From the IMG/VR virus record IMGVR_UViG_3300003878_000001, positions 1 through 64,000 of that record: a DNA stretch of 64,000 bases, one strand, 5' to 3'. Below are positions 674 to 52,886 of the stretch, one piece after another. Both the position numbers and the translations under genes were made by a program. Every line of letters starts with the position of its first letter. Positions within the stretch are counted from its first letter, which is position 1. This stretch comes from a virus. A model generated the notes under the pieces. It did not search any database, was not told the DNA's origin, and saw only the letters and a list, made by a program, of their open reading frames with translations.

Positions 674-724
674 CTCGCATTACTATAGTTTATACTATCG
701 TTTTTTTAATGAAATAGTTAAACT
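674..724. repeat. quasi-palindromic intergenic repeat, copy R1 (GCGAG box at left end)
   Basis: CTCGCATTAC-TATAGTTTAT...TTTTTTTAATGAA-ATAGTTAAACT, the same building blocks as the copies at 8354, 34553, 34797, 45967, 53257 and 63070. It overlaps the 3' end of ORF 695-1057. Confidence 0.6.
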
Positions 725-1057
725 TTGATTGGCTTCGATAGAGTTGTAATAATCGGTTTTCAGATGAATAGCACATCTATTTGTTCGCAAATTGTTATCA
801 ATAGGAACAACAAAGAGTCCAAAGTAACACTCATAGTACTGACGTACCATTGCAGCGTCTTGAGTTTCACCATCAACCAATACAAGCCATTCTTCAGCAT
901 CTAATTTCCAACCCTCAGGAAAACCATTTACAATGAATGGAGCATTCTCAAAGGGCAACAGCTTGACCTGTTTACCCCTTTGTTCGCCTACGATAGCTCC
1001 ACTCTCATCATATATATGATCAGTTTTTTCATCAATATATAAGTTGAGATGTGTCAT
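695..1057 (-). CDS. hypothetical protein (120 aa)
   Basis: ATG at 1057, 3 nt after the stop of the upstream gene. No motif recognised. Confidence 0.5.
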   Translation of the reverse strand: MTHLNLYIDEKTDHIYDESGAIVGEQRGKQVKLLPFENAPFIVNGFPEGWKLDAEEWLVLVDGETQDAAMVRQYYECYFGLFVVPIDNNLRTNRCAIHLKTDYYNSIEANQSLTISLKKR

Positions 1058-1060
1058 TAA

Positions 1061-1438
1061 TTAGTCTCCTGTAATAGAAATAGGATTACTATCGTTAGTA
1101 ACCTGTTCTGTTTCATATCCAAGTTGTGTTTTTACTTGAGAGGAAACTTTAGAATAGACACTTTTCAATTGGTCTGTGCTACGACCGGAACGAATTTGTT
1201 CCACGGCATAACCAAATAGACGTTTTCCAAAAAGAACGTAATTAAGTGTTTCAGAATACGAGCATTTTTCAGCGGGAAGAATGTATTCACCTTCAGCTTG
1301 AGCAAAATTGGCTGTGGTTTCATCTGTCAATCCATTAGCGTCTTCAATGGCTCGTACACCAGAAGTCTCTAACAAGTCACGAATGATGACAAATGCACCA
1401 ATATGAGCAAGGGTAAATACGGTTAAGTCAGTAATCAT
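1061..1438 (-). CDS. hypothetical protein (125 aa)
   Basis: Minus-strand ORF tightly packed with its neighbours. Confidence 0.5.
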   Translation of the reverse strand: MITDLTVFTLAHIGAFVIIRDLLETSGVRAIEDANGLTDETTANFAQAEGEYILPAEKCSYSETLNYVLFGKRLFGYAVEQIRSGRSTDQLKSVYSKVSSQVKTQLGYETEQVTNDSNPISITGD

Positions 1439-1450
1439 TGTTTTTCAGTT

Positions 1451-1927
1451 TTATTGTTTTAGGAGGAGTGTATCATACTCTAGTGCTGCAATCTCTTTCT
1501 CAATTTCTTTTATGTTGTTTTCAAGATTATGCTTAGTTTTACGAAGAACAGAAATTTGTTCTTGAGCCTCTTGAGATTTTTTAAGATTTCTTTGTTGTTC
1601 GTGAATTGGCTCACAAGTATGTGTGTACCAAATTGCCCCAAAAACATTATCCTTAAAGACTTTAATATCACGAACAAAATTGATGGCATCCTCCGCCATT
1701 TGTTCACATTCTTTAGTGGGATCTGTCATTTGAACAGGACAAATTGTAGAGATTACAACACCATGACCATCAATCACATCAAACCAACCAGAATACTCAC
1801 TAGATGGTTGAAAACGATACCCATAATCTTTTGATAGCATCATTGCTGCATCATAGATTTCACTAAGCTCAGTTTTAATCCGATTAGCAAGCTCTTGACG
1901 GGCAGCGAGTACTTTAGGGTTGGTCAT
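1451..1927 (-). CDS. hypothetical protein with C-terminal coiled-coil-like region (158 aa)
   Basis: Minus-strand ORF with a heptad-like C-terminus rich in Glu, Lys and Leu. The ORFs at 1510-1707 and 1529-1834 lie inside it and are treated as spurious. Confidence 0.5.
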   Translation of the reverse strand: MTNPKVLAARQELANRIKTELSEIYDAAMMLSKDYGYRFQPSSEYSGWFDVIDGHGVVISTICPVQMTDPTKECEQMAEDAINFVRDIKVFKDNVFGAIWYTHTCEPIHEQQRNLKKSQEAQEQISVLRKTKHNLENNIKEIEKEIAALEYDTLLLKQ

Positions 1928-2017
1928 GTCTTTTTCTTAACTCTACTCTTTTATAATGACATAATTTAATCCCAATTGTAACCGTATAATTACTTATTTA
2001 CAATTGGGATTGGTTAA

Positions 2018-3955
2018 TTAGCCGTCACATCCTGCACAATCAGGATCAGAGGTTGCCCAACCCTCATGGATAGGTTCAACAGAATTTGATACTTTTATCG
2101 TATCTTTATATAGGTCATATAGATCTGTAAATCCTCCAATTAGTTCGCCATTTTTGAAAATTTGTGGTACTCTTCCGGTTTCTTGTACTACCATAGTAGG
2201 ATTAAAACCAAATCTATTTAATAAATCTTTGGCTTTATGACACCAAGGACAATCAGCCCTATAATTTATTACCCAATCAGGTTTTTCTTCTTTCAAAGTA
2301 GTAGGTCTTCTATTGTTTAACTCATTGTTACTACGAACATAATAAAGAGATTTCAATCCTTTTTTCCATGCAACAATATGTAGTTTAGCAATTAGACTTG
2401 CATCAGCATCATGACCAATGAAAAGGTTAACAGATTGTCCTTGATCTATATACTTTTGACGGTCAGCAGCTTGTTGAATGATAGTGAATTGGTCAATCTC
2501 ATGAGCTGTCTTAAACACAGACAAATCTTTATCAGATAGATCAAGATGTTGAACAGAACCATTAGCTTTTTGAATGCTTTCCCAGATTTCCGGGGTATCC
2601 ATATTCAAATAAGATAGAACTCTTTTTAGATGCTTATTTTTGCGAACAAAAGTACCTTTGGAACCTGAATAAACATAGTAATTAGAGTGAATTGGTTCAA
2701 CACCAGCACTACCCGCATTACAAAGAACAGAATTAGTAAGTGTTGGAGCAATAGCCATTTTTACAACGTTTCTGTGCTTACTCTTTATACACCATTCAGG
2801 GAATCCTAGCTTTTCTGCCAACCATTTTGAAGCTCTTATTGTTCCTTTTTCGATAGATTGAACTATCTCAATATTTGCTTGCATTGATTCGGGAGAATTA
2901 AATGCCCAACCTTTTGACTGGTAATAAGAGTGTAACCCCATATATCCTAATCCTAAAGCTCTACCTTTGATGGCAGAACGAACAGAATTTTCAAATCCTG
3001 GCAATTGGAATGCCTTATCAATGAATTCTTGACAAACACCATCTAAGAAGATTGTTGCCAATTCTACAGCAGTAAATCCAGAATCCCCGATCCAACGTTG
3101 CCATTCATCAAATTTATCTGCATTCATAGAAGATAGAACACAAGTAAAAGAGTGCTTTGAATCGGAAGGCTGAAAAATCTCAGAACAAAGATTACTCGCA
3201 ACAATATCAAGAGCCAATGCCTTAAAGTCTTCTGGCTTGTACCTATTGGCTGTATCAATGAAGACAATATAGGGTGAACCCGTTTGAAGTCTTAGACGTA
3301 GAACTTTTGAAAAGAGTCTTCCTGCTTCGGCATCACCTGCCAAAATCTTTTCCATAAACTCATCTGTAATTGTAATACCAATATTACACTTTAACTTCTG
3401 AGTTTGATCTCCACGAGATTTATCACGAGCATCTAAAATAAGATCAATATCTCGATGTTCAATTGAAATATATAAGGCAATGGCTCCACGTCTGACACCA
3501 CCTTGATTTACTGTATCCGCCACCTTATCATAAACTTGTGCCCATGATGTAACAGGTGAAAGACCAATTAAATCATCTAACGATACAGATGTACCACCAC
3601 CCATTTTTGACAACATTGCCAATTCATGAGCTGTTGTAAAAATACCGTCAATAGAGTTTTCAGGAACAGAACCAAAACAGCTAACTGGCAAGCCTCGATC
3701 CGCCTCTTTAGGTGTATTGAAATTAGATGCAACTGGTGAAGCAGGGGATAGCCAACCATTTGATAGAATATAGAACAAATCATTTTCAATAGCATCAATG
3801 TTTAGTCCTGGTACAGGGTATAGTTGTCTTACACCACCGCTTGCAAGACGTTTATACATTTGATTAGGTGTTTCATTCTCTAAAAGATACCCACTTTTTA
3901 ATGTTGCATACCCTTCTTCTGAAATCCAATTAGGGGAATCGGGAAACTGTGTCAT
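2018..3955 (-). CDS. nrdA: class I ribonucleotide reductase alpha subunit fused to a C-terminal glutaredoxin/NrdH-like domain
   Basis: Start taken at ATG 3955. The ORF-track extension to 4042 begins at TTG and runs through a GGTTATAAT promoter-like box. Motifs present are LPVSCFG, ASNLCSEI (Asn-Cys-Glu site) and the LYYVRS tyrosine pair. There is no N-terminal ATP-cone. The last ~87 aa (2018-2281) contain CPWC in a thioredoxin-fold-like context and a terminal CAGC pair. Confidence 0.9.
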   Translation of the reverse strand: MTQFPDSPNWISEEGYATLKSGYLLENETPNQMYKRLASGGVRQLYPVPGLNIDAIENDLFYILSNGWLSPASPVASNFNTPKEADRGLPVSCFGSVPENSIDGIFTTAHELAMLSKMGGGTSVSLDDLIGLSPVTSWAQVYDKVADTVNQGGVRRGAIALYISIEHRDIDLILDARDKSRGDQTQKLKCNIGITITDEFMEKILAGDAEAGRLFSKVLRLRLQTGSPYIVFIDTANRYKPEDFKALALDIVASNLCSEIFQPSDSKHSFTCVLSSMNADKFDEWQRWIGDSGFTAVELATIFLDGVCQEFIDKAFQLPGFENSVRSAIKGRALGLGYMGLHSYYQSKGWAFNSPESMQANIEIVQSIEKGTIRASKWLAEKLGFPEWCIKSKHRNVVKMAIAPTLTNSVLCNAGSAGVEPIHSNYYVYSGSKGTFVRKNKHLKRVLSYLNMDTPEIWESIQKANGSVQHLDLSDKDLSVFKTAHEIDQFTIIQQAADRQKYIDQGQSVNLFIGHDADASLIAKLHIVAWKKGLKSLYYVRSNNELNNRRPTTLKEEKPDWVINYRADCPWCHKAKDLLNRFGFNPTMVVQETGRVPQIFKNGELIGGFTDLYDLYKDTIKVSNSVEPIHEGWATSDPDCAGCDG

Positions 3956-4013
3956 GTTTTTGTTTATTAATGTTCCTCTATTATAACCTAGTCCAATACT
4001 AAAAAGATACTGA

Positions 4014-4292
4014 CTATAAAATAGTCTTATATCGGGACTCAATCAGTCTATATTTTGTTGTCCCCCAACCGTCAAGATAATTCTCATCCAGTTGACGAAC
4101 ATAACGGAATAGTTCATGTGTACTATCTACTTTCTGGTCTAAACCTAATTCTGTTGCTTTATCCCAAGCATCTTTTATAGCTTTTTCCAGTTTTCTTTTT
4201 TCACGTATAGCAATCATCTTGTCACGAAAGTTTGCAACACCCCAGATTACCGATTCATCGTAAGTATCACATGTTCCAATTAATGTATACAT
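4014..4292 (-). CDS. hypothetical protein (92 aa)
   Basis: Minus-strand ORF. Its start overlaps the stop of the upstream gene. Confidence 0.5.
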   Translation of the reverse strand: MYTLIGTCDTYDESVIWGVANFRDKMIAIREKRKLEKAIKDAWDKATELGLDQKVDSTHELFRYVRQLDENYLDGWGTTKYRLIESRYKTIL

Positions 4293-4486
4293 TTTTCAAA
4301 CCTATTAACTAACTTATTGTTTACTATCACTTTTTGTATAAACATTGAATAAGGTCTAACCCAAGTATTACCTAATTCATCAGAATATATTGCAAGAAGC
4401 TCTTGAGTCTCAGTGTGTCTTCCAATGAAATGAACAAAATATTTTGTACCCTTATAATGCCGATATGTTGTACGATTTACAATCAT
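4280..4486 (-). CDS. DUF1653-like small protein
   Basis: YRHYKGTKY...HTETQELLAIY...WVRPYSMF pattern. ATG 4486 forms an ATGA overlap with the DHFR stop. An alternative ATG lies at 4498. Confidence 0.55.
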   Translation of the reverse strand: MIVNRTTYRHYKGTKYFVHFIGRHTETQELLAIYSDELGNTWVRPYSMFIQKVIVNNKLVNRFEKCIH

Positions 4487-4974
4487 CGCTTCACCCATTT
4501 ATAACATTCAAGTTTTCCATATTGAAATAGCTTGTCTTCCTTTTGAAATTGTTTTTCAGGGTTCCAAAAAGTATCACAAGGAGAATAGTTAAACGTAGGA
4601 TTATGCATAATGATTGCCTCATCTGCAAAATGTGCCCAATTTTCCAGCAAAGAAGCACCACCAATTAAAAATATGTCTCCAGGTAAATCTTGGTACATAT
4701 TAAGGAATTTCAATAACTCAGATCCACACATTGAAGACCATTGATCCCATTTTCCAATGTTATCTTTTCGAGAACTGGACAAGTAAATAAGTCTTCGTCC
4801 ATTCTCAGGTACATTACGCATTGATTCAGCCGTATGTCTGCCTGCAATTAGCGTAGATCCTTGTACAGATGTTAACAACTTAAAAAGTTGATAGTCCAAG
4901 GGATCTTTATAAATGGTTTTTCCTTCATACCCTAATTCACCATTAGGGCCAACGTTCAGAATTATTTTAATCAT
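4483..4974 (-). CDS. folA: dihydrofolate reductase
   Basis: MIKIILNV, LIAGRHTAESM, GRRLIYLSS, IFLIGGASLLENW and DTFWNP are collinear with E. coli FolA motifs (VIMGRHTWESI, GRKNIILSS, VIGGGRVYEQF). Confidence 0.75.
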   Translation of the reverse strand: MIKIILNVGPNGELGYEGKTIYKDPLDYQLFKLLTSVQGSTLIAGRHTAESMRNVPENGRRLIYLSSSRKDNIGKWDQWSSMCGSELLKFLNMYQDLPGDIFLIGGASLLENWAHFADEAIIMHNPTFNYSPCDTFWNPEKQFQKEDKLFQYGKLECYKWVKR

Positions 4975-5452
4975 AATTGTTTTGTATCTCTTGATATCTA
5001 ATTAGCGTGATTGCTTTCATGTAATCGGAATTTTCGTCATGATTGACAAGTGTATATCTATTGTCAAGTATTGTTCTTAGTTTAGTTGATGAATAGTTCA
5101 GACCAATATCTGATTCAAGCTTCTTAACAATGACTGCCTCATTAACTACATTTAATCTTATGGCGGTTTCCGCTAGACTCGCGTTATCGAGTGCAACAAA
5201 TAATGTAGATTCTGAAAAACCTTTTATGGTTGTGATATTAGACCAGCGTGTAAAGTCAACACGAAGTAGTTCATCCGCAGTCAATAGGCAAGTAAAAGCA
5301 TGAACTCTAAGATACCAATCAGCCGCTTTAGAATTTTTCTTTGACGTAGATAAGGCTACAGTCACCCGTTCACAACTTTTTAGAGCACGTTTAATTAATG
5401 AAACATGACCTTCATGAGGAATATTAAAACGACCAATTACTAAACCAAACAT
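4967..5452 (-). CDS. nucleotidyltransferase of the HxGH/cytidylyltransferase superfamily, NMN adenylyltransferase-like
   Basis: N-terminal GRFNIPHEGH (GRFxPxHxGH as in NadM/NadR NMNATs) and C-terminal SSTKLR (ISxTxxR-like). Confidence 0.6.
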   Translation of the reverse strand: MFGLVIGRFNIPHEGHVSLIKRALKSCERVTVALSTSKKNSKAADWYLRVHAFTCLLTADELLRVDFTRWSNITTIKGFSESTLFVALDNASLAETAIRLNVVNEAVIVKKLESDIGLNYSSTKLRTILDNRYTLVNHDENSDYMKAITLIRYQEIQNNYD

Positions 5453-5549
5453 TTAACATTACCGTTAACTGATTCTATTATACCAATTGACAATGATCAT
5501 GTCAATAGGTTATATATTAAATAATGAGTTTAAGGATGATCTAATCTAT

Positions 5550-6704
5550 ATGGCTACCAAACCTAAATGTGCTAAGGAGAACTACCCTTGCGAAGGCCCT
5601 AAAGGTACCGCTTGTATCAGTAGATCTAAAAAATGCAAAGGGAAACCTAGTGAGGAATCTCAAAAAAATGCTACCAAGTTAAAGGAAACCGTTGCTAAAG
5701 CCAAAGAACGGAAACCTAAAACAGATGAACCAGAACAGAAAAAAGAAGTTGAAAACGTCAGTCCAGAACAAGCAGGCGAAGAACTTAAACAAGTTGCTAA
5801 AGCTGGTCAAGCAAGTTTTCTTGGTGGAGAAACAAATGAATTAGCAATGGTTCAAGCAGTCAACAAAAAAATTGGTGTAGAAACTGATTCAGAAATCACA
5901 GACAAGATTGAAGCCAATCGTCAACTTCTTGGTGATAAGAATACAAATGAACGTATTCGACAAGCTGAGGACATGATTAATAAGTCTCTAGATTGGGCAA
6001 AGGCAAACGGTTTTGAAGGTAATGTAACTGGAGTTGTTTGGACGGCTAGACCGGGCTCTATGGCGGCTGCTGGTATCTCTGGACAAGACGGCAAAGCTAT
6101 CACCCAAGCAAAACACCCTGCTGATGTTGTTCTCCAATTTGATGACGGTAAAAATCTTGGTCTATCTGCTAAATCCACATTAGGGAAATCAGACATTACA
6201 TTTAAGAACAGAGGAGCGGGTACTCTTGGTAGTTCTTTAGGTGTAGATTTATCTGCTGCAAATAATAATGCTATGAACAGATTCACACAAGAAAATGGTT
6301 TAAGCTCATCTTCTAAAGAAAGAAAAGCACAAATTAGAGCTAATCCCGATCTAGTATCTAGTGCAAATGCTGCTAGAACTCAGGCATTAGGTGAAACTCG
6401 TGATACATTATTAAACAGCATCAAAGACCGTGGTGGAGATTTTCTAAGAAGTGAATTCCTTGATACAGATGATCAAGGTTTACGATACATTAAAGTAACG
6501 GGTACTTCTGGAGATTCAAGAATCAGTGACCCCAACGATAATAGGATTACACGAGCTATTGCAAGTGGTCAACCTATTTCTTATGAACCCAAAGGAAACG
6601 ACACTGTAAACGTTATTATTGGTGGAGAAAAAGTGTTTGGCATTAGAGCAAAAGCAGCCGGTCAAGCAATGGCATCATCAATTAAATTTGACGTTAAAGC
6701 ATAA
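5550..6704 (+). CDS. unknown protein, paralog 1: Cys4 plus Lys/Glu-rich N-terminus and a PD-(D/E)XK-like core
   Basis: Plus-strand ORF. The start is ambiguous (TTG 5487, ATG 5493/5499/5550). It shares blocks with 6767-7666: GGETNELAMV, VVWTARPG, KHPADVVLQFDDGKNLGLSAKS, FKNRGAG and LRYIKVTG. Confidence 0.6.
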   Translation: MATKPKCAKENYPCEGPKGTACISRSKKCKGKPSEESQKNATKLKETVAKAKERKPKTDEPEQKKEVENVSPEQAGEELKQVAKAGQASFLGGETNELAMVQAVNKKIGVETDSEITDKIEANRQLLGDKNTNERIRQAEDMINKSLDWAKANGFEGNVTGVVWTARPGSMAAAGISGQDGKAITQAKHPADVVLQFDDGKNLGLSAKSTLGKSDITFKNRGAGTLGSSLGVDLSAANNNAMNRFTQENGLSSSSKERKAQIRANPDLVSSANAARTQALGETRDTLLNSIKDRGGDFLRSEFLDTDDQGLRYIKVTGTSGDSRISDPNDNRITRAIASGQPISYEPKGNDTVNVIIGGEKVFGIRAKAAGQAMASSIKFDVKA

Positions 6705-6766
6705 AATATACCCCATAGGTTTTTCTCTATTATATTTGATATGATGGAGAAAATTATGGTAAAGTT

Positions 6767-7666
6767 ATGAAAGTTTCATCCGGTTCAAAGGGAGCATTAG
6801 GTGGAGTCGCCACAGAATTAGGTGTAGTAGCAGAAATGAACCGTATTCTTAAACTACCTGTTGACCCTGTTGTACATGAAAAGAGAATAAAAGTCTCAGA
6901 AAAGATTGGTGACGATTTTTGGTATCGTTCGGAACAATCTTTTTCTATTGCAATCGGTGTTATGTGTTGGATGCAAACCAATTACTACACAGAAAAAGTC
7001 AAACAAATAGTTTGGACTGGCCCTAAAGGAACATTTTCAAAATTTGGAATTTGTGAAAAACATCCGGCAGATTTGTTAATTCTTTTTGAATCAGGAAACA
7101 AAATTGGAGTTTCAATTAAAAGCTCCACGACAAATGGATCAAAATTAAATTTCAGGAACAGAGGAATCAGCAGCCTATGTAATGATATGGGTTGTAATTT
7201 TGTCTCAAAGAAAGCTCAATTGTCTGAGGAAAGATTTCTTCAAATCTACCACTGTTCAACCCGTAAAGAATTACTTATTAAACAGAAAAATGATATAAAT
7301 GTATTACGTTCTAGTAAGGAGTATGGAACAAAAATATTGCAACAAGTTAGATGGGATCTATTGAATTTCTTTTCATGTTGTTCTATAGAAGAAAACAAAC
7401 AAAAACTATTAGATTGTTTCCTGAAATTTACAAATGATGATTTAACTTATATCAAGGTGACTGGACTCAAAACTAAAGCTCCTATTATTGAAAACCCTCT
7501 TGATAATAGAGTCATCAATTTATTAAAGAATTGCAATAACTTAACCTTTGAATCAAGTGGTAAATATGTTATCAAAGTTAAAGCCGACAATGAAAACATT
7601 ATCGACCTGTCACCCAAATATTCTAATCAGAAAATTAGCACTGGAATAATTGTTATTGCCCGCTAG
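6767..7666 (+). CDS. unknown protein, paralog 2 of 5550-6704 (PD-(D/E)XK-like core)
   Basis: GGVATELGVV, IVWTGPKG, KHPADLLILFESGNKIGVSIKS, FRNRGIS and LTYIKVTG are collinear with paralog 1. Confidence 0.6.
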   Translation: MKVSSGSKGALGGVATELGVVAEMNRILKLPVDPVVHEKRIKVSEKIGDDFWYRSEQSFSIAIGVMCWMQTNYYTEKVKQIVWTGPKGTFSKFGICEKHPADLLILFESGNKIGVSIKSSTTNGSKLNFRNRGISSLCNDMGCNFVSKKAQLSEERFLQIYHCSTRKELLIKQKNDINVLRSSKEYGTKILQQVRWDLLNFFSCCSIEENKQKLLDCFLKFTNDDLTYIKVTGLKTKAPIIENPLDNRVINLLKNCNNLTFESSGKYVIKVKADNENIIDLSPKYSNQKISTGIIVIAR

Positions 7667-7925
7667 GAAAATCAAACACATCAATTTCATCAGCTATAAA
7701 TTGTGATGTTTGTTGTATGGAGAGGTGACCTCCGTATCGTTGACCCATCTCTCTAAACATTGAATTTCCATTTGCATTTCTACATCTAGCTTCCGGCTCT
7801 AAATTAGTAGCACATTCTTGACCGTAGGCTCTAGCCATTTGATCTAAAGTCATCTTCCCATCAAAATGTTGCAATGTTCTGCCTAGAACAATTTGCATTT
7901 CACCGTGAGTCATCTCATTCTTCAT
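7653..7925 (-). CDS. hypothetical protein (90 aa)
   Basis: ATGA overlap with the upstream kinase-like gene. Its 3' end converges on 6767-7666 with a 14-nt overlap. Confidence 0.45.
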   Translation of the reverse strand: MKNEMTHGEMQIVLGRTLQHFDGKMTLDQMARAYGQECATNLEPEARCRNANGNSMFREMGQRYGGHLSIQQTSQFIADEIDVFDFPSGQ

Positions 7926-8350
7926 CTTAAAAATCTCCGTTTGATTACCTTTAATGATTCATCATCGTTTCGTCTCTCAGGATCAGGGAAAATAGTTGTA
8001 CCTGCTCCCCAATCAATTATCTCAACACCCTCCTTTGTTAACATTACATTGGTTCCACCTGATAAATCATTATGATGTAAACCATTGTCATTTGCCAATT
8101 GAACTTTCTCTTCCAATTCGTTATATTGTTCTTCAGTTAAACCTTGATTTTGCCAAACGGTTTTACCCTTGACTTTTCTCATGGTCAAAGAATTATGGCT
8201 GTGATCTAGGACTTCAGGAGAAATTCCTAGTTCAGCGGCTTCAATCTGACATTGAACCTCATTCTCTCCTAATTGTCCTATTTTCGTTACTGTCCCATCA
8301 CCTTGATCATATACTCTTCCATGACCACCTTTACCAATTGATTTCCACAT
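7922..8350 (-). CDS. minimal protein-kinase-like protein (142 aa, Bud32/RIO-like)
   Basis: G-loop IGKGGHGRVY, Lys in TVTKIG, catalytic loop HHNDLSGGTN, DFG-like IIDWG. Confidence 0.6.
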   Translation of the reverse strand: MWKSIGKGGHGRVYDQGDGTVTKIGQLGENEVQCQIEAAELGISPEVLDHSHNSLTMRKVKGKTVWQNQGLTEEQYNELEEKVQLANDNGLHHNDLSGGTNVMLTKEGVEIIDWGAGTTIFPDPERRNDDESLKVIKRRFLR

Positions 8351-8353
8351 ATT

Positions 8354-8400
8354 CTCGCATTACTATAGTTTATTTAATGAAAAAAGTAATAATAAACTAT
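8354..8400. repeat. quasi-palindromic intergenic repeat, copy R2
   Basis: CTCGCATTAC-TATAGTTTAT-TTAATGAAAAAAG-TAATAATAAACTAT. On the minus strand it reads ...AAACTATAGTAATGCGAGAAT directly before ATG 8350. Confidence 0.7.
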
Positions 8401-8404
8401 TACT

Positions 8405-9013
8405 TTAGAGAGCAGACAAAGGAGTAAAAGTGAACTTGGAACGGCATCGAGCACAGCAATAAGTCTTTTTGATTCCTTTGTAACGTCCACGAGTCGAAAC
8501 ATACCCATTAACTTTTCTTTCTGCAACCATAGAGGTTAAAGTAATAGGGTTAAGATGGTTAGTGCATTTGGAATTGGAACAACGGATAGAAGTTGTAGAG
8601 ACAGAATCAGATGAATTAATTCTTTTCAGAGCAACCAGTTCTTCATAGTTATGACGAGTGTTTGACTTGATGTTAGGGTATAAACCAGCAGCATTAAGGG
8701 CAATAGTATTGTAGTTATGAAAATACCGTCCGTGACCTGTTTTACCACGAAGGTCAAATTCTACACCATGAGCCATCTCATGAAATAAGCAGCTAAGAAA
8801 ATTGTTTACTGTTTTGAAATTAGAATTCATTCTGATTTGATGCTTTGCGGGTCTCATTGTCCCACCAGTAGTCTTGAGACGAGAATTAAATTCAATTGTG
8901 TATACAGAAAAATCAACGCTTCTGAATGTAGGTTCAAAAACCTCTTTAATCAATCTCTTAAGTACTGCCTTAAGTTGACGATTAGTAGTAGGAACCTTAG
9001 CAATCTGAAACAT
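8405..9013 (-). CDS. SprT-like zinc metalloprotease with C-terminal zinc ribbon
   Basis: HEMAHG (HExxH) after a SprT-like N-terminal region (RLKTTGGTM...HQIRMN). Cys clusters CSNSKC and CCARC lie near the C-terminus. Confidence 0.7.
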   Translation of the reverse strand: MFQIAKVPTTNRQLKAVLKRLIKEVFEPTFRSVDFSVYTIEFNSRLKTTGGTMRPAKHQIRMNSNFKTVNNFLSCLFHEMAHGVEFDLRGKTGHGRYFHNYNTIALNAAGLYPNIKSNTRHNYEELVALKRINSSDSVSTTSIRCSNSKCTNHLNPITLTSMVAERKVNGYVSTRGRYKGIKKTYCCARCRSKFTFTPLSAL

Positions 9014-9030
9014 GGTTTAATCTCTTAGCT

Positions 9031-9046
9031 CTATGTTCTAATTATA
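9031..9046 (-). promoter_or_regulatory. promoter-like TATAATTAGAACATA box upstream of 8405-9013
   Basis: The minus strand reads TATAATTAGAACATAG about 20 nt before the ATG. A near-identical box lies at 9472-9486. Confidence 0.4.
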
Positions 9047-9054
9047 CTCAAGAA

Positions 9055-9089
9055 AAAGCTCAGCATCTTGAGTAAAAACACTGAGCTTT
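9055..9089 (-). terminator. Rho-independent terminator after 9124-9453
   Basis: Perfect 9-bp stem AAAGCTCAG/CTGAGCTTT, followed on the minus strand by TTTTTCTT. Confidence 0.65.
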
Positions 9090-9123
9090 ATTTAGAGTTA
9101 AGTCGAAAATTGTGAGTATTTAC

Positions 9124-9453
9124 TTAGTCGTAATGTGCCTCTTGTCGAGTAAGAATCGCCCCTTCGAAATCAAAACCAGAATCACCGAAGTTAATTTTGT
9201 TGATATCTGCCTGAGTGAGAGGCTTATATGTAGGGGGAATTGGGTGAAGTCTTTCATGCACACGTCCAGCCAGATCATAACGATCTTTACGAGAAAGACG
9301 AAAGGTAGCACCAATACGACGATATGTCAAGTACTTAGTGATATCTGCTTTGCTAATTTTCAACCAATCAGGCTCTTCAAAAACACCTGCTTCTCTGATT
9401 CTTTTTAACTCTTCAGCCCATTGTGCTTCTGTAAGTTTCAAATCAAGGTTCAA
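9124..9453 (-). CDS. hypothetical protein (109 aa, TTG start)
   Basis: TTG at 9453 is preceded by AGAGGAAAAACC. No motif recognised. Confidence 0.5.
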   Translation of the reverse strand: MNLDLKLTEAQWAEELKRIREAGVFEEPDWLKISKADITKYLTYRRIGATFRLSRKDRYDLAGRVHERLHPIPPTYKPLTQADINKINFGDSGFDFEGAILTRQEAHYD

Positions 9454-9471
9454 AGGTTTTTCCTCTTTGCT

Positions 9472-9486
9472 TATGTTCTAATTATA
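9472..9486 (-). promoter_or_regulatory. promoter-like TATAATTAGAACATA box upstream of 9124-9453
   Basis: The minus strand reads TATAATTAGAACATAAGC followed by an SD sequence. It duplicates the box at 9031-9046. Confidence 0.4.
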
Positions 9487-9517
9487 GTTTAAGTTTTAAG
9501 GAAAAACCTGAGTAATT

Positions 9518-10492
9518 TTACTTATATCCTCCTGCATCAAATAATTCTGCTCTAATACTTTTTTGAGGGTGATAGTTAGCCAATTGAAAATCAGCCGGTT
9601 CAAAATCTTTTAGACTTTTTTGATTTCTATCTTCTATCAACAGTCGAGTAGAGTTAAATTCTTGAATTTGTTCAGCTTGTTCAAACTGTTGATTAATAGC
9701 AGCAAAATGCTTGGAATAAAGGTGAGCATCATGAACCATAACAACAAGCTCATCTGAAGTCCAAACCGTTCCTGTTCTGTTTGTTAGACACAGACAATAC
9801 ATTTCTAAAAGAGCTGCATACTGAGCCACATTAAACGGATTCCCAAGAAACAAATCATTTGAACGAATATCAACCACAAGAGAAAGACAATTGTTGTGAT
9901 TGCTTACCAATTGGTGAGCGAAATGACACGCAGGCAAAACAACAGATGTCCTATTACATTCTTCTGCTTGATGGTAAACTGTGGCAGGATTCCATAGTGA
10001 AACTAGATATGATTTCCTGTGTGGTGCTTGTGGAAGTTGTTCTAGAATCCAATCAGTTTGATTATGACCTGTTTCATCCCAATTGGTAATATTTCCGTAA
10101 TGGAGAGGAACTTCAAACGGCATAGCTTCAGAATCAGGATTCTCTCTAACGACTTGAAAGAAACGATCTTTGCTCATAGACGATTGAGGGTAACAAAGTT
10201 TGTGAGCTTTATAGATCCAGTCATCCCAGATACGTACATTATTTTCAATAAGCCATTTTGGATCACCATCACCACGAATAAACCAAAGCATTTCTTTGAT
10301 GGCAGTACGCCACATTACTTTCTTGGAGCTATAAACAGGGAAACCTAGATCGAAATCATGTTTCAACATGGCACCAAGAATAGTCTTGATATATTGACCA
10401 TCGCCTTGATATAGATCTTTTCTTGAACCTTTTGTCATGATGTCTTTACATAGACTCAAGTATTGTTCTTCTATTGGTAATAGGTTAGTCAT
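9518..10492 (-). CDS. thyA: thymidylate synthase (ThyA family)
   Basis: Start taken at ATG 10492 (SD GAGGAAG). Motifs KEMLWFIRGD, LPACHFAHQ and RSNDLFLGNPFNVAQYAALL are present. Asn in PFN indicates a dUMP substrate. There is a long internal insertion as in the large ThyA forms. Confidence 0.85.
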   Translation of the reverse strand: MTNLLPIEEQYLSLCKDIMTKGSRKDLYQGDGQYIKTILGAMLKHDFDLGFPVYSSKKVMWRTAIKEMLWFIRGDGDPKWLIENNVRIWDDWIYKAHKLCYPQSSMSKDRFFQVVRENPDSEAMPFEVPLHYGNITNWDETGHNQTDWILEQLPQAPHRKSYLVSLWNPATVYHQAEECNRTSVVLPACHFAHQLVSNHNNCLSLVVDIRSNDLFLGNPFNVAQYAALLEMYCLCLTNRTGTVWTSDELVVMVHDAHLYSKHFAAINQQFEQAEQIQEFNSTRLLIEDRNQKSLKDFEPADFQLANYHPQKSIRAELFDAGGYK

Positions 10493-10907
10493 AAATCTCT
10501 TCCTCGTCTGTTCCTTCACATGTTACTAAATAAGTTTGTTCTATACAAGGTGAACTAATGAAATCATTAAATTCTTCACCAAAATAAAACCTGTCAATAT
10601 GACATTCTGATGCTTGTTCAATCTCATACCTGTCAATTAGTCCGATTATATCTTTTTCATCTATATTATGAATATAAGTATAATCATTAAATAATATACA
10701 CTTACCTTCTCGATTGGCGACAAAAAGAACACAATCAACAAGTATGAAATTTTCTTCAATGATTAGAGGCAAGTTTTCAGGTATGCTTACCTTAATCATG
10801 TCATACCGTTGTTTTCCCAATTGACAAAAACCCTCAAGAGTTAATTGTACTTTCAAGTCTTCAACGGCATTGTCCATAAGTTTTGTAATAATCATAGAAT
10901 ACTCCAA
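10485..10907 (-). CDS. hypothetical acidic protein (140 aa)
   Basis: Minus-strand ORF overlapping both neighbours by a few codons. Confidence 0.5.
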   Translation of the reverse strand: MEYSMIITKLMDNAVEDLKVQLTLEGFCQLGKQRYDMIKVSIPENLPLIIEENFILVDCVLFVANREGKCILFNDYTYIHNIDEKDIIGLIDRYEIEQASECHIDRFYFGEEFNDFISSPCIEQTYLVTCEGTDEEEIYD

Positions 10908-11467
10908 TTGATGTATTCAGGTTTTCCAGCTAAGAAAGAGCTATAAAATGACTCGTCACCAGCAACAATTTTATAAGCTTTATCCATGAGTTCGGTAGGA
11001 ATAACGGCTAAGCCCATTTCAGAAGCTTCAGCAATAAGTTGATCTACATTCATGTTGCTTGTTGCTTCCAATTCAACAATCCGACCAAAACCAGAGTTAA
11101 GAGCTGGTTCAATTAGAAAGTCTCCAGCATCATAGCTATCTCTATTGCGAAACCATTGAGATTCGATCTTAAATCCTTGACCTTCCAGTTCAACACCAAG
11201 ATCCCATTGTGTGAGTCCTGTCTCTATTTCAATCTCTATCCTGTCTTGCCCATTTACAGCGTTCTTTCCGTATTTCTGCACCAATAGGCATTCACGATCA
11301 TTATCAGGACTGTATGAGCGTGTACGATAGCTTACACCCGTTAATTGAGGGTGTGAATAGTACCAATTGTGTTGAATGATACTATCCCCAACTTTGATGG
11401 CTCGTTCTAGCCCCTTAATATACTTCCACTCGTCAACCACTTGACACTTGATTTCAATCTCTCGCAT
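10892..11467 (-). CDS. CYTH-domain protein (CyaB/thiamine-triphosphatase-like triphosphate tunnel enzyme)
   Basis: Start at ATG 11467 with SD AAGGAA. N-terminal EIEIK signature plus later acidic strands IEIEIE and IVELEA. Confidence 0.6.
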   Translation of the reverse strand: MREIEIKCQVVDEWKYIKGLERAIKVGDSIIQHNWYYSHPQLTGVSYRTRSYSPDNDRECLLVQKYGKNAVNGQDRIEIEIETGLTQWDLGVELEGQGFKIESQWFRNRDSYDAGDFLIEPALNSGFGRIVELEATSNMNVDQLIAEASEMGLAVIPTELMDKAYKIVAGDESFYSSFLAGKPEYINWSIL

Positions 11468-11520
11468 TTTTATTCCTTGTATATTAGTGTTTCTATTGTA
11501 ATGTATTTGCGACAATAAAC

Positions 11521-12111
11521 CTATTCAGTATAAAAATATTCACTGTGTTTAGGGTTTCTAACTTTTCTGCTCATGTAGGATTTGTCTATCCCATGAGCAC
11601 TAGCAGCTTCTTTACAAGAATTAAAGGTACCAAGAGGAGTTGTTACTTTTTTCATCCTTGATTTACTCATTTGGTCTTTTGTTCCTTGGGAATGTGTTGC
11701 ACCATATCTAACACTGTTAGAACCAGTTTTACCAAAATGATAAGAATTTTCTCCTGAGTTAGCTTTACTAATTTTCTCCTTGGTCTGTTCTGTTCTAGGT
11801 ATGCCTTTGTTCCAGGCTATTAGTCCTGTTGTTCCTTCTCCACCATTTGTCATATTGGTTAAACAGCCTGTCTCCAGATCCAATCTACCATACAAATCAA
11901 TCAGCTCAATTTCTTTTTGGCAAGCTTCTTCTAATGTGAGATTACTGAATAGTATACGAATTTCAAATGTGTTGTTCCTTTCTGCTTTGACTCTCTTATT
12001 CGTACAATAAGGGTTTCTTCTGCATCTAAGGTTGGCTCGGTTTCTAGTGCCTAGCCCTACATAGAAAATCTTGTTATTATCAAACCATCCATATACTACT
12101 TTATCTCTCAT
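11521..12111 (-). CDS. GIY-YIG homing endonuclease (Seg/I-TevI-like) with NUMOD3 repeats and C-terminal HTH
   Basis: VVYGW...IFYVGLG, EIELI and NMTNGGEG. NUMOD3-like WNKGIPRTEQTKEKIS and HFGKTGSNS repeats. Paralogous to 22444-23031, 26741-27274 and 63425-64000. Confidence 0.85.
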   Translation of the reverse strand: MRDKVVYGWFDNNKIFYVGLGTRNRANLRCRRNPYCTNKRVKAERNNTFEIRILFSNLTLEEACQKEIELIDLYGRLDLETGCLTNMTNGGEGTTGLIAWNKGIPRTEQTKEKISKANSGENSYHFGKTGSNSVRYGATHSQGTKDQMSKSRMKKVTTPLGTFNSCKEAASAHGIDKSYMSRKVRNPKHSEYFYTE

Positions 12112-12136
12112 AGTTTAACTATTTAATGAAAAAACC
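12111..12136. repeat. half copy (R9) of the quasi-palindromic repeat abutting the GIY-YIG start codon
   Basis: The minus strand reads TTTTTTCATTAAATAGTTAAACT followed directly by ATG 12111, at the position where other copies carry the GTAATGCGA box. Confidence 0.5.
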
Positions 12137-12205
12137 AAAGAAACATATAAACGTTTCAATGGTCTTATTATAACTGATGACTGCCCTCAATGTGTAGGAG
12201 GTATG

Positions 12206-13174
12206 TTATAGACTACTAAAATCAAATCCCTCTAGGTCTGATCCAGCAGTGGCAGAATAGGCTCCGCCATTGTGAGCTTCAGCGAAGAAATCAATTTTAA
12301 CTGTTCCTAATGTCATCGGATAAAACCATTCGCTGATATTGTTCTTGGTGAATGTATCAGTAAACATAGGATCATAACCCAAGGCATCCAATCGGTCATT
12401 ACATCTATGACGTAGAAAACTCATTACATTTTCATAGTCTACATTTAGTAATGTACTTCCATTGTTAAATGCATTAGCAATAAAGTCTTGTTCAATGTTG
12501 TATGATTGAAAGAAAGCAGCCTCAATTTTATCTTGTGAAGGACGATATTGAGGATATTCTGTAATCAATTCTTTGAATAATTGAGCAGCCGTATCACTAT
12601 GGAGATTTTCATCTCTTACCGACCAAGAAAGAATTTGTCCGAGACCTTTTAAGTATCCCGCTTTTCGATAACTTAAAAGAACAGCAAATGATGCGAATAG
12701 GCTTACACCTTCTCCACAACCACTCATCAAAGCTATTTGATAAGGTAAATCTTGAATTGGTGTCAATGAGGGAAGTTGAAAATGACTCAATTTGGATTGT
12801 GCATACACATTGGTATTCATTTTTTCCCAAGTGTTTAGTCCTAGAGTATCTTCAAGATGTTTATATCCATATCCGTGAATAGTTTCAGAATAGGAGAAAG
12901 CGGTGAAAGCTGCAATTAGTTCAGGATAAGAGAATCTAATTGCTAAATCTCGCCAATACTCTCCGATCCCTTGTTCAAGTTCTGTGAACGCTAGTAGAAT
13001 GCCAGCAATGGCTTCTTTATCTGCATCAGGAATATTGTCTTTCCAATCAGAAATATCACTTGTCATATTAGGTTCACGATATGACCAAGGATTTTTCATA
13101 ACAGCTTCGAAAGCGGTTTGAGCCCATTGATATGTTGCAGGTGTCAAGGGGCCAGTGTATGTGTCAAATAGCAT
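12206..13174 (-). CDS. nrdB: class I ribonucleotide reductase beta subunit
   Basis: Ferritin-like di-metal motifs: SYSETIHGYGY (ExxH plus Tyr), GCGEGVSLFASF and VRDENLHS (ExxH). Confidence 0.9.
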   Translation of the reverse strand: MLFDTYTGPLTPATYQWAQTAFEAVMKNPWSYREPNMTSDISDWKDNIPDADKEAIAGILLAFTELEQGIGEYWRDLAIRFSYPELIAAFTAFSYSETIHGYGYKHLEDTLGLNTWEKMNTNVYAQSKLSHFQLPSLTPIQDLPYQIALMSGCGEGVSLFASFAVLLSYRKAGYLKGLGQILSWSVRDENLHSDTAAQLFKELITEYPQYRPSQDKIEAAFFQSYNIEQDFIANAFNNGSTLLNVDYENVMSFLRHRCNDRLDALGYDPMFTDTFTKNNISEWFYPMTLGTVKIDFFAEAHNGGAYSATAGSDLEGFDFSSL

Positions 13175-43412: not shown

Positions 43413-44081
43413 TTACTGAACTAGAGAACGAAGTTGAAGCTTATCTTGCAACAAAGCAGAAGCCAAACGGTCATGTTGAGCAAAGAATTGAAACACATGT
43501 ACTACATTCCCTCGCTTAAACATTCTGTCTGCCTGTTGAGCCAATCTATCACGGTTTGCAGATTGCACGACAGAAAGCAAATCGGGATCATCAGCCAATT
43601 GATGTAGAACCGGGCTCAAAGAAAATCCCTTTGCTTGAAATCTTACGGCTCTAAATACTCTTTCTGGAGACTGCAAAAAACAATCCATATGGCAAGGTCT
43701 GAGAACTTTATCGTTCAAATCGGCTTGTCCAAAAAGAGGGTCTACCAATTGTTGAGTCTTACAGTTCAACGCCATAGCATTAACTGTGAAATCACGAGAA
43801 GCAAGATCAGCATCTAGACTGTCTACTACTTTGAAATCCAATACCCCTAGATCGTGCTTTGCTTTTGCAGTTTTGGCATCAGCATTAAGAACGAAACTAG
43901 ATCCAGATTTTTGAGGCAATGGGGAACATCCAAGCTGTACAAGCAGTGCAGGAAGTTGGTCAAAACTATCAAGCCCTACTACCACAAAATCTAGATCATT
44001 AGGTGCTACGTTCATCAATTGGTCACGTACTCCTCCTCCAACTAGAAAGACATCAACGTTATCAGGTATAAATTTGAACAT
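43413..44081 (-). CDS. short CCA-adding / poly(A) polymerase-family nucleotidyltransferase (head-neck only)
   Basis: Start at ATG 44081 (SD GAGG). Motifs LVGGGVRDQL, DLDFVV, RDFTVNAMA and SPERVFRAVRF. At ~222 aa it lacks the usual body/tail half. By eye the gene looks richer in G+C than its neighbours. Confidence 0.8.
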   Translation of the reverse strand: MFKFIPDNVDVFLVGGGVRDQLMNVAPNDLDFVVVGLDSFDQLPALLVQLGCSPLPQKSGSSFVLNADAKTAKAKHDLGVLDFKVVDSLDADLASRDFTVNAMALNCKTQQLVDPLFGQADLNDKVLRPCHMDCFLQSPERVFRAVRFQAKGFSLSPVLHQLADDPDLLSVVQSANRDRLAQQADRMFKRGNVVHVFQFFAQHDRLASALLQDKLQLRSLVQ

Positions 44082-44099
44082 TTGATGCCTCACTTTTGT

Positions 44100-44329: not shown

Positions 44330-45712
44330 TTATACTACAGATTCAGGGAGAACAAAATCCTTTTCAGCAGCATATGCACGGTTTAACATGATCCATTGAT
44401 CCTTATTCTTAAATCTAAAGTGACCAGTTCCTTTTTTATAGAACTTCGCCTCCCAGAAATTAAAATCATACCATTCTCCAGGGTAAATAGTGCCTTCACG
44501 TTCCTTTAACTTTCGTAAAGTAATCATGTTGTCATAATTGGAGCCTGTCAAGTTGCACATTACTTTTAACAGGTCATCAATATAATCTTGTTTCCCTCTG
44601 TAACAGAAATCTAAGGAGGTGCCATTCCAATTAACTTCAACGAGATAATCTACAATAAATTTTTGATTTAACATGTGACCGCTATTAGTTTTCCAACCAG
44701 CAACGCCCCAACGATTTTTATCTGTATATCGTGTAAAATGATCAACAGATTCAACTAAAGCCTGTTTTAATGTTTCCTGTCGAGTCATCATGATCATTTC
44801 AATCATGACATAGACATTTTTCATTGTAAAAGGTACATTTGTTTGAGTTTCAACAAACTTGTTAATCTTGTCAATCATACCTCTTGTGACATATTTTCTC
44901 ATATTTAGCATATCAATCGCTTTTGACCAAGCAACCTTTTGCATATGTTTGGAAAATTGTTGACGAGTAGTCACTTCGTTGTTATGACCATATGATACAG
45001 AGAATCGGATACCCGAAAAATCAAGACTTGAAGTCGTATATTTCATCTCTTTTTGAAGAACTAGCAGCTTATCAAAAACTTTCATCGCTCCAACATGAGA
45101 TTGAACAAGACGCCTAACACTGTTATTCTCTGCCAAGCCTATTCTAGTTTCTTCTTCATCAGGTTCCATAAAGAACATACTTTCATAGTCGAAGTCTTCT
45201 GAGACAACAGGAACATACAACTTAATGAGTCCAACAGTTACATTTGTTTTACGTTCTGCATCTGTAAACACTTCACCAAGATTTACTGTTAACCCATAAT
45301 TACGAATCAATGAACTAAGTTTACTATAGTGATAGTCTTTTGAAATAGTTTCCCAATTACAAAGACTAATGATTTCACAACCTTCCGGAGCAATATCAAA
45401 AGCATGTTGAATATGTTCGTGAGCATTGGCAAAAGGTGGATTCATGACAATCATATCCACATGAGAAATGTCTGAGGATTGGACATCAAGAAAATCTTGA
45501 CCAACAAATTCACAATCTTTGGTCTGAAGAATAGCTCGTAAATCCTCTTCAATCTCACAAACAAGAATACGACTTGCTCCAATATCTTTAAGATAGTCAA
45601 CTAGATCGCCTTTACCTGCTGAAGGTTCTAAAACAATTTTACCCGTGACATCTAAACCCATTAGTTCTGATACAGATCTTGGAGTAGGGTAAAAACCAGC
45701 ATTAAACATCAA
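44330..45712 (-). CDS. N6-adenine DNA methyltransferase with a large C-terminal extension
   Basis: LEPSAGKGDL (motif I) and IVMNPPF (motif IV). About 270 aa of extra C-terminal domain. Confidence 0.85.
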   Translation of the reverse strand: MMFNAGFYPTPRSVSELMGLDVTGKIVLEPSAGKGDLVDYLKDIGASRILVCEIEEDLRAILQTKDCEFVGQDFLDVQSSDISHVDMIVMNPPFANAHEHIQHAFDIAPEGCEIISLCNWETISKDYHYSKLSSLIRNYGLTVNLGEVFTDAERKTNVTVGLIKLYVPVVSEDFDYESMFFMEPDEEETRIGLAENNSVRRLVQSHVGAMKVFDKLLVLQKEMKYTTSSLDFSGIRFSVSYGHNNEVTTRQQFSKHMQKVAWSKAIDMLNMRKYVTRGMIDKINKFVETQTNVPFTMKNVYVMIEMIMMTRQETLKQALVESVDHFTRYTDKNRWGVAGWKTNSGHMLNQKFIVDYLVEVNWNGTSLDFCYRGKQDYIDDLLKVMCNLTGSNYDNMITLRKLKEREGTIYPGEWYDFNFWEAKFYKKGTGHFRFKNKDQWIMLNRAYAAEKDFVLPESVV

Positions 45713-49103: not shown

Positions 49104-49384
49104 TAGTGATCTCTCATTGGTCTGATGTTATTGGTTCCGAGATGGGTAGGGATGTCAGCAGAAAAATCACTAGGGGCATCAAAAACAGTTCCTTCAGAGT
49201 CTACGATTCTAGTCATTTCCGCACCTAAAAACTTAGACAATTTACAAGAATTAGTTTTTGTTTTAACAAAAAGCTCTTCACTGTCATCATGACCACGAGA
49301 AAGATAGAAAGCAGTGTAATCTGGTAAACTGCCAATTGGCATATGTGCATCAGTCGGGTGAACTCTAGGCATAATATTTTTCAA
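49103..49384 (-). CDS. hypothetical protein (93 aa)
   Basis: 1-nt overlap with the downstream gene. Confidence 0.45.
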   Translation of the reverse strand: MKNIMPRVHPTDAHMPIGSLPDYTAFYLSRGHDDSEELFVKTKTNSCKLSKFLGAEMTRIVDSEGTVFDAPSDFSADIPTHLGTNNIRPMRDH

Positions 49385-50441: not shown

Positions 50442-50485
50442 AATATATTTCCTTCTCTTGAACTTATTATAACTAATGAAAAACA

Positions 50486-51698: not shown

Positions 51699-51710
51699 GT
51701 ATCTTGTGAG

Positions 51711-51784
51711 TGGGATACGTGGGACTCGAACCCACAACCTTGAGATTAAGAATCTCCTGCACTAACCAATTGTGCTAGTATCCC
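51711..51784 (-). tRNA. tRNA-Lys (anticodon CUU)
   Basis: Hand fold: GGGATAC/GTATCCC acceptor, GCAC-AATTGGTTA-GTGC D arm, anticodon loop TTCTTAA, GTGGG-TTCGAGT-CCCAC T arm. No encoded CCA. Confidence 0.8.
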
Positions 51785-51790
51785 GATTTT

Positions 51791-52293: not shown

Positions 52294-52303
52294 GGTTTAT
52301 TTT

Positions 52304-52883: not shown

Positions 52884-52886
52884 AAA

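Follow-up and report, generated by a model that had tools for sequence, protein, structure and literature searches.

A virus-restricted protein family with a predicted restriction-endonuclease-like fold, represented by two diverged tandem paralogs in the nucleotide-metabolism block of a large phage

Why would two adjacent phage genes run against every sizeable gene around them, and what do they encode? The question is raised by a 64,000-nucleotide stretch of virus record IMGVR_UViG_3300003878_000001 (positions 1 to 64,000; hereafter the window), an AT-rich (~36% GC) fragment of a large phage that encodes ribonucleotide reductase (RNR), dihydrofolate reductase (DHFR), thymidylate synthase (ThyA) and 10 tRNA genes. 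The two genes, here called p1 and p2, form a plus-strand island within a minus-strand nucleotide-metabolism block: all other open reading frames (ORFs) of at least 120 amino acids (aa) over positions 695-13174 are on the minus strand, and the GC skew changes sign across 5001-7000. An earlier reading of the sequence (the original prediction) had noticed this orientation, and had proposed that the genes encode a pair of restriction-endonuclease-like nucleases against which two distant methyltransferases would protect the phage DNA. We report that p1 and p2 belong to an unnamed and essentially virus-only family for which a PD-(D/E)xK nuclease fold is supported by structure prediction. The best joint explanation, to which we give a probability of roughly 0.45, is that they are single-chain, metal-dependent endonucleases or nickases acting on a conserved DNA feature, coupled to a neighbouring HIGH-motif nucleotidyltransferase and, elsewhere, to the DUF6267 protein, with p2 as a sub-functionalised copy.

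The two proteins are clearly paralogs. They align collinearly over 296 aa at 27% identity (BLASTP, E=7e-27), far beyond chance, and every block that the original prediction had quoted was found in the alignments: GG..(N/T)EL, (V/I)VWT...G, KHPAD...G.S.KS, F(K/R)NRG and L.YIKVTG. The KHPAD...SxKS block is coded at 6111-6176 in p1 and at 7058-7123 in p2, confirming the positions first assigned to it. The four-Cys cluster and Lys/Glu-rich linker ascribed to the first paralog are also there, the cluster occupying p1 residues 7-29 (CAKENYPCEGPKGTACISRSKKC). All four Cys are kept in the two closest homologs (P0002 and P0003), and similar N-terminal clusters occur in the p1-type relatives P0076, P0083, P0096 and P0113. 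The module, spelled approximately C-x2-G-x2/3-C-G-x2-C-[IQV]-x5-C in p1 and the homologs P0003, P0076, P0083, P0096 and P0113, has no match in Pfam.

The original prediction recognised no characterised family, and indeed scans of Pfam, NCBIfam, PADLOC and PHROGs returned no named family for p1, p2 or their relatives, the only weak match being the unannotated phrog_2496. The family is nonetheless sizeable. A word-indexed protein search retrieved 15 relatives, and a profile search of 1.84 billion representatives gave 444 clusters at 50% identity (E<=1e-3), 191 of them at E<=1e-30. Relatives are encoded in 198 IMG/VR viral stretches, as against a single contig, from a metagenome-assembled archaeon, among 185,579 species genomes, and one of 50,697 GenBank phages (tblastn; megablast against GenBank phages gave no match). 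The family therefore appears essentially virus-only and restricted to uncultured viruses. The one GenBank carrier is Synechococcus phage S-B68, where the family domain makes up the C-terminal half of a 583-aa hypothetical protein.

Conservation was computed over 140 diverse family representatives, in p2 numbering. Residues conserved in at least 90% of them are N16, E17, W83, P100, D102, G114 (100%), S116, K118, N131, G133, R195, P244, R282 and K284; the set E17, P100-x-D102 and S116-x-K118 is conserved in 97-99%. All near-invariant residues are present in p1. The E/PxD/SxK set is also present in p2, but T16, S282 and I295 replace the N, R and K of the family. Conservation further extends to glycine-rich loops with K, S or T (GxSAKST, FKNxGxG and YIKVTGxG).

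Structure prediction places this residue set in a recognisable frame. Models of p1 and p2 were built separately with AlphaFold, the alignment for the p1 domain also including p2. The p1 domain model (127-sequence alignment) reached a predicted local distance difference test (pLDDT) score of 96.0 and a predicted template modelling (pTM) score of 0.89, and the p2 model (16-sequence alignment) 89.8 and 0.73. In Foldseek searches of the PDB, the p1 domain matched best to HinP1I (2fkc_A, E=3.2e-4, probability 1.00, template modelling (TM) score 0.39/0.46, 297 columns) and second to MspI (1sa3_A, E=4.8e-3), and p2 matched best to MspI (1sa3_A, E=0.04, probability 0.60). The alignments to HinP1I and MspI cover nearly the whole chain (297-322 columns). 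In the BFVD structure library, uncharacterised phage and giant-virus proteins were the only matches. In both models the secondary structure runs helix, three strands, helices and a further strand, that is, an alpha-beta-beta-beta-alpha-beta core. The conserved Asp comes directly ahead of strand 2, and SxK is carried by its hairpin partner, strand 3; this placement is canonical for PD-(D/E)xK. In both, three helices form the N-terminal part, strands 3 and 4 are separated by a long helical insert, and a second, C-terminal sheet comes after it. In the predicted p1 domain the first sheet comprises residues 77-82, 111-115, 120-127 and 231-236, and the C-terminal sheet spans 261-301. The middle position of (D/E)xK is Ser, a non-canonical variant.

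Since the best fold matches are PD-(D/E)xK restriction enzymes and E...PxD...SxK is near-invariant in the 140 representatives, a nuclease fold is supported for the predicted structures of p1 and p2, and the restriction-endonuclease-like core proposed for them, with this motif set at its centre, is borne out. Searching models of both proteins with Foldseek was among the checks that the original prediction had itself called for. The fold evidence is consistent across two separately modelled paralogs, yet moderate.

The type of enzyme differs from that first envisaged. Enzymes of the Cfr10I/NgoMIV/Bse634I type do share the motif spelling PD...SxK with p1 and p2, but their catalytic Glu lies downstream of SxK, whereas the near-invariant Glu of the family is in the first helix, upstream of PxD. 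None of them is among the 50 PDB matches listed for each model, and the analogy to Cfr10I and NgoMIV thus fails in favour of the HinP1I/MspI type. The Cfr10I/NgoMIV/Bse634I-type enzymes belong, moreover, to the alpha-class and are tetrameric (PMC4081073).

The monomeric type IIP enzymes HinP1I (PDB 2FKC; PF11463) and MspI (PDB 1SA3; PF09208) align with the p1 and p2 models over about 300 columns. They reportedly carry the motifs SD-x18-QxK and TD-x17-NxK, respectively, which would parallel the non-acidic Ser of the family. HinP1I, MspI and HhaI are mutual nearest structural relatives, monomers in which a catalytic sheet is combined with a recognition sheet (PMC7026639), and our models, too, would have a second sheet after the catalytic one. 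Chain size is also similar, at 247-262 aa for HinP1I and MspI and about 300 aa for the family. There are differences as well. The long insert and the three-helix N-terminal part of the family are extra; unlike these enzymes, the family is virus-only and usually has no partner methyltransferase, and the residues of its putative recognition region are conserved rather than variable. Lower-ranked matches, in which only the core aligns, were ACE1, AdnAB, EcoO109I, the RecU-type 1rzn and Cas4 SSO0001 for the p1 domain, and an AdnAB chain, the Cas4-like ACE1 and EcoO109I, all at E>0.5, for p2. These matches (Cas4/ACE1, AdnAB nuclease domains, RecU, EcoO109I; E=0.1-1) are consistent with a shared core, but p1 and p2 have neither an iron-sulfur cluster Cys motif nor a helicase partner. 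On the strength of the models, p1 and p2 would thus represent a new, unnamed family within the known PD-(D/E)xK superfamily, with a genomic association that is possibly new as well.

That association was surveyed by calling genes in 82 family loci and clustering the neighbours, with a non-redundant set of 52 loci that differ in their family protein and have two or more genes downstream. Two neighbours recur. DUF6267 (PF19782, E=1e-105) is directly downstream of the family gene in about 40 loci, and about 50 loci have a HIGH-motif cytidylyltransferase-like enzyme, mostly at +1 or +2. In the non-redundant set, DUF6267 lies at most three genes from the family gene in 30 loci, the nucleotidyltransferase at most four genes away in 24, and one or both within 3-4 genes in 36 of the 52. 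The links are also physical: the protein P0111 is a HIGH-motif nucleotidyltransferase fused to the family domain, and the single profile phrog_455 spans DUF6267 (positions 21-340) and the nucleotidyltransferase (344-726), which implies fused forms of these two. The N-terminal extension of P0017 also seems, by eye, to share a module (~LGL-x-HVGYG-x-[WY]-x-D-x2-G) with the ~387-aa nucleotidyltransferases of loci L034-L054, possibly a further sign that the two are linked physically or functionally. The window has the nucleotidyltransferase gene as the divergent neighbour of p1, an adjacency shared with two related phages (L083 and L086), and its best PHROG name is nicotinamide-nucleotide adenylyltransferase. 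Upstream of the family gene, small phages carry genes for DnaB-like and UvsX/RecA-like proteins, MazG and a DenV-type pyrimidine-dimer glycosylase. Another gene found nearby encodes a Pnkp-like HAD phosphatase.

DUF6267, for which no mention was found in the literature, possesses an invariant KxDG near its N-terminus and invariant E370-G371, V373, K384, V386 and R388 near its C-terminus (22 members, for example L004:2106-3323). These residues are reminiscent of motifs I, IV and V of ligases and capping enzymes, so that DUF6267 is possibly ligase-like, and one of the 22 members matches RNA_lig_T4_1 weakly (E=0.003).

The pair itself is old. The phage closest to the window (L083) has a p1 homolog of 80% identity and no p2, and its layout is that of the window, with the nucleotidyltransferase on the minus strand, p1 on the plus strand (L083:6001-7119) and then a 90-aa gene and a RIO-like kinase on the minus strand. 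A second relative (L086) has three plus-strand paralogs of 296, 367 and 298 aa (L086:1421-4421) between the nucleotidyltransferase and an 87-aa gene. Because the 298-aa copy, in the same position as p2, is a 65%-identical ortholog with the same T16, S282 and I295 peculiarities, the split of p1 and p2 is taken to be an old one. In a third relative (L084) the p1 homolog (50% identical) is a single copy, co-directional with ThyA, DHFR and RNR. Copy number hence varies from one to three within one phage group, and the reversed orientation is, judging from these arrangements, a feature of the lineage and not a property of the family.

Taking the paralogy, family conservation, predicted fold, synteny and fusions together, we propose the following for catalysis, substrate, pathway and timing. 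p1 and p2 would be anciently diverged tandem paralogs of a virus-restricted PD-(D/E)xK family closest in architecture to HinP1I and MspI, with an N-terminal helical part, a catalytic sheet bearing E...PxD...SxK, a helical insert and a second C-terminal sheet. Transcribed together, probably early, from their own promoter-like site, they would be divalent-metal-dependent endonucleases or nickases whose single chains act on a nucleic acid duplex, most likely one of DNA. Many polar non-catalytic residues are near-invariant, several of them in the C-terminal sheet that would correspond to the recognition domain; it is thus probable that the substrate is a single conserved feature, be it a structure, a lesion or a fixed site, and no variable restriction site. 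The enzyme may be at work in a DNA and nucleotide metabolism module of the phage, functionally coupled to the adjacent nucleotidyltransferase and, in many other phages, also to the possibly ligase-like DUF6267. This synteny and coupling suggest that the enzyme carries out the incision in a pathway of DNA processing or repair and is not one half of a restriction-modification pair. As p2 has lost three near-invariant polar or basic residues while keeping the catalytic ones, it has probably become sub-functionalised, with its substrate contacts changed.

Several observations count against this proposal. The fold matches are weak in absolute terms, with TM scores of 0.3-0.46 and a root mean square deviation of about 10 Å, and sequence comparison connects p1 and p2 with no nuclease family: they match neither PF11463 nor PF09208 at E up to 10, neither Pfam family is among the 25 listed for 140 family members scanned at E up to 1, and the family profile run against PDB sequences found no nuclease, its single match being a nucleoprotein at a non-significant E=2.2. 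The Ser in the (D/E)xK motif takes away one usual metal ligand. As for the neighbourhood, synteny in phage genomes can stem from shared ancestry instead of function, no nucleotidyltransferase was called near the family gene of L084, and no DUF6267 is present in the six-frame ORFs of the 64-kb window. The DUF6267 profile was negative against PDB sequences, as was its hhalign comparison with the Rnl1-like ligase of the window, and its ligase assignment, which rests on motifs and one weak Pfam match, therefore stays a lead. Finally, the glycine-rich conserved loops are also compatible with a small-nucleotide ligand.

This last point leads to an alternative in which the proteins are no DNA endonucleases at all. 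The scaffold would instead bind or hydrolyse a small nucleotide (for example a signalling oligonucleotide, or a compound related to nicotinamide adenine dinucleotide) or RNA ends, and would act with the enzyme resembling nicotinamide mononucleotide (NMN) adenylyltransferase in nucleotide metabolism or counter-defence; or it would be catalytically inert. The persistent linkage and the fusion to a nucleotidyltransferase with that PHROG name are in keeping with it, as are the MazG and Pnkp-like HAD phosphatase neighbours, the three glycine-rich loops and the moderate fold matches. However, the structures matched best are restriction enzymes bound to DNA, with alignments that extend over almost the entire chain; the conservation of the E/D/K triad is complete; and, to our knowledge, characterised PD-(D/E)xK enzymes act on polynucleotides. 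We consider this alternative distinctly unlikely, and an endonuclease or nickase remains our preferred reading.

If p1 and p2 are nucleases, what spares the phage DNA? The two methyltransferases invoked by the original prediction are real: 31897-32757 matches the C-5 DNA_methylase family (E=1e-43), and 44330-45712, an N6A methyltransferase, has EPSAGKG and NPPF motifs and a DUF4942 match. A dispersed restriction-modification-like arrangement, in which p1 and p2 would be sequence-specific nucleases and these two enzymes would protect the genome, would also fit the resemblance of the fold to type IIP restriction enzymes, and in one distant phage (L001) a family homolog is directly downstream of an N6_N4 methyltransferase. 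Yet this is the only one of the 82 loci where a methyltransferase adjoins the family gene, and that methyltransferase has no homolog in any other surveyed locus. The methyltransferases of the window lie 24-37 kb from p1 and p2, paralog number changes from one to three among close relatives, the family is nearly absent from cellular genomes, and the residues of the C-terminal sheet, where recognition would reside, are near-invariant instead of variable. This part of the original prediction is not supported, and we regard such a system as unlikely, with only a slim chance of being the correct explanation.

Protection could also come from missing target sites. Many palindromes are strongly avoided in the window (observed against expected: GCGC 0/17.3, GGCC 15/59, CGCG 4/12, TTTAAA 0/41), and the six-mers GGATCC, ACTAGT, CTGCAG, GAGCTC, CCATGG, GACGTC and CAGCTG do not occur. 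Such depletion is the usual signature of host restriction pressure, and orphan methyltransferases of phages commonly serve the same purpose. The missing GCGC, the site of HinP1I and HhaI, was considered as a trace of p1 and p2 and rejected: no palindrome is avoided in common by the family-carrying phages, in which the avoided words differ, and GCGC occurs at expectation in L005 and L055. Its absence is thus not attributable to p1 and p2, and palindrome avoidance in the window probably reflects restriction systems of the host, which again speaks against the restriction-modification arrangement.

The same data bear on a role in host-DNA degradation like that of T4 endonuclease II (DenA), in which early cutting of host DNA would feed RNR, ThyA and DHFR, the phage being spared by absent target sites without involvement of the methyltransferases. 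In four related large phages (window, L083, L084 and L086) the family gene lies between RNR/DHFR and ThyA, within the nucleotide-metabolism block, a setting analogous to that of T4 denA, which adjoins the nrd genes, as a phage nuclease gene amid nrd, td and frd-type genes. The analogy would be functional, since DenA, a GIY-YIG enzyme of some 136 aa, has a fold unrelated to that of p1 and p2. A promoter-like site of p1's own would suit early action, and with GCGC absent and GGCC and many six-mers depleted, a GC-rich-site-specific enzyme would spare the window. Nevertheless, the avoidance is not common to family-carrying phages, the context in small phages is replication and repair, not nucleotide synthesis, and neither the near-invariant C-terminal-sheet residues nor the link to the nucleotidyltransferase and DUF6267 is explained. 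We judge this role possible, if unlikely, and favour the conserved-feature endonuclease or nickase.

The features of the locus are compiled in Table 1. In-frame starts of the p1 ORF include TTG 5487 (the first), ATG 5493 (the public gene call) and ATG 5550, and the last of these is most likely the true one because the homologs P0002 and P0003 begin just ahead of the Cys cluster.

Table 1. Coordinates of p1, p2 and adjoining features in the window.
Feature	Position	Strand	Description
p1	5550..6704	+	384-aa canonical family member: N-terminal Cys4 cluster, Lys/Glu-rich linker, predicted restriction-endonuclease-fold domain; family hidden Markov model (HMM) E=1.5e-113
p1 four-Cys cluster (C7, C14, C22, C29)	5568..5636	+	possible zinc knuckle
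p1 Lys/Glu-rich linker, 59 residues (13 K, 11 E)	5637..5813	+	from composition; outside the modelled domain
p1 predicted nuclease-fold domain	5796..6701	+	AlphaFold pLDDT 96.0, pTM 0.89; Foldseek best matches HinP1I, MspI
p1 predicted catalytic residues	E97 5838-5840; P190-x-D192 6117-6125; S206-x-K208 6165-6173	+	
p2	6767..7666	+	299-aa divergent paralog without N-terminal extension; family HMM E=7e-98; AlphaFold pLDDT 89.8
p2 predicted catalytic residues	E17 6815-6817; P100-x-D102 7064-7072; S116-x-K118 7112-7120	+	
Divergent intergenic region	5453..5549	.	promoter-like sites for p1 (+) and the nucleotidyltransferase gene (-)
HIGH-motif nucleotidyltransferase (cytidylyltransferase-like, NMN-adenylyltransferase-like)	4967..5452	-	Pfam CTP_transf_like E=3.9e-7; phrog_3462 E=5e-10

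A consensus scan, which reports pattern matches only, found a sigma-70-like site upstream of p1 (plus strand, 5453-5481, 10/12 matches) and a perfect sigma-70 consensus for the nucleotidyltransferase gene (minus strand, 5505 to 5477; TTGACA, 17 nt, TATAAT, extended TG). The two stand back to back, that of p1 being the weaker, and the pattern suggests that both genes may be read early by the host RNA polymerase. A further promoter-like site before p2 (6736-6765) ends 2 nt ahead of its ATG and is therefore not regarded as functional. The only terminator-like site detected lies inside p2, with none between the two genes or after them, and p2 is probably co-transcribed with p1; its 3' end overlaps the convergent 90-aa gene by 14 nt. 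In the same block, the class I RNR large subunit (2018-4042) weakly matches glutaredoxin at its C-terminus (E=1.2e-4, narrowly below the Pfam cut-off), and its L083 ortholog (L083:729-4274, 1181 aa) is interrupted by an intein (Hint/Intein_splicing matches).

A separate observation concerns N-termini. Among 985 predicted proteins in the related loci L001-L082, 83 start with M-x(1-4)-[FYW]-x2-[FYWLIM]-[LIMV]-x-E, where about 2.5 are expected by chance, and 64 of the 83 fit the strict decapeptide MxxFxxFLxE (for example L004:1166-5256, L009:5893-8493 and L039:3588-4751, and the family proteins P0020, P0022 and P0084). This leader is found in 12 or more protein clusters, among them the family itself (16 of 163 retrieved proteins), DUF6267, the HIGH-motif nucleotidyltransferase and the Pnkp-like HAD phosphatase. 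The capsid targeting sequence of T4, MKTYQEFIAE, has the same pattern (compare MKTYQSFITE in P0084); its residues 4 and 7 drive targeting, and 8 and 10 processing (PMC9026906). The leader is absent from p1, p2 and every other ORF of the window. Ahead of the conserved (N/T)-E at which the domain begins, p1-type proteins have the Cys module and linker, where other family members have the leader immediately before it. The Cys4 cluster was tried as a shared leader of the window and discarded, as it recurs in no other credible ORF there.

The leader suggests that enzymes bearing it are packaged into virions in some phages. A broader reading can be built on this, in which the family supplies the incision enzyme of an undescribed phage nucleic-acid processing or repair kit, together with DUF6267, the HIGH-motif adenylyltransferase and the Pnkp-like phosphatase. 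The kit would be packed into the virion by means of the leader, which its proteins bear in many uncultured phages, and delivered with the DNA, for example mending sunlight-damaged or nicked phage DNA before phage gene expression. The window phage would represent a variant in which two diverged copies are instead made early, with the Cys4 module of p1 in the leader's place. Such a kit is speculative, and we think it rather improbable. T4-type RNA repair is represented in the window, too, by a gene set with Pnkp (47261-48136; kinase and HAD_PNKP, E=3e-50) and the Rnl1-like RNA ligase (49365-50486, E=3e-15), two PolyA_pol/CCA-enzyme-like nucleotidyltransferases (43413-44093 and 59878-60606) and an RlaP-family gene; three of its 10 tRNA genes (51710-63409) are for tRNA-Met.

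If the fold assignment is true, p1 and p2 point to a large, unnamed family of restriction-enzyme-like nucleases that is almost phage-only and unpaired with methyltransferases, and in which the restriction-endonuclease fold would be used for the phage's own DNA or nucleotide metabolism. That a single one of 50,697 GenBank phage genomes carries the family marks a blind spot of cultured-phage biology. Monomeric nickase-like enzymes of fixed specificity could, in addition, serve as reagents. The linkage and fusion with the HIGH-motif nucleotidyltransferase and DUF6267 give three functionally uncharacterised proteins a common context that can be tested.

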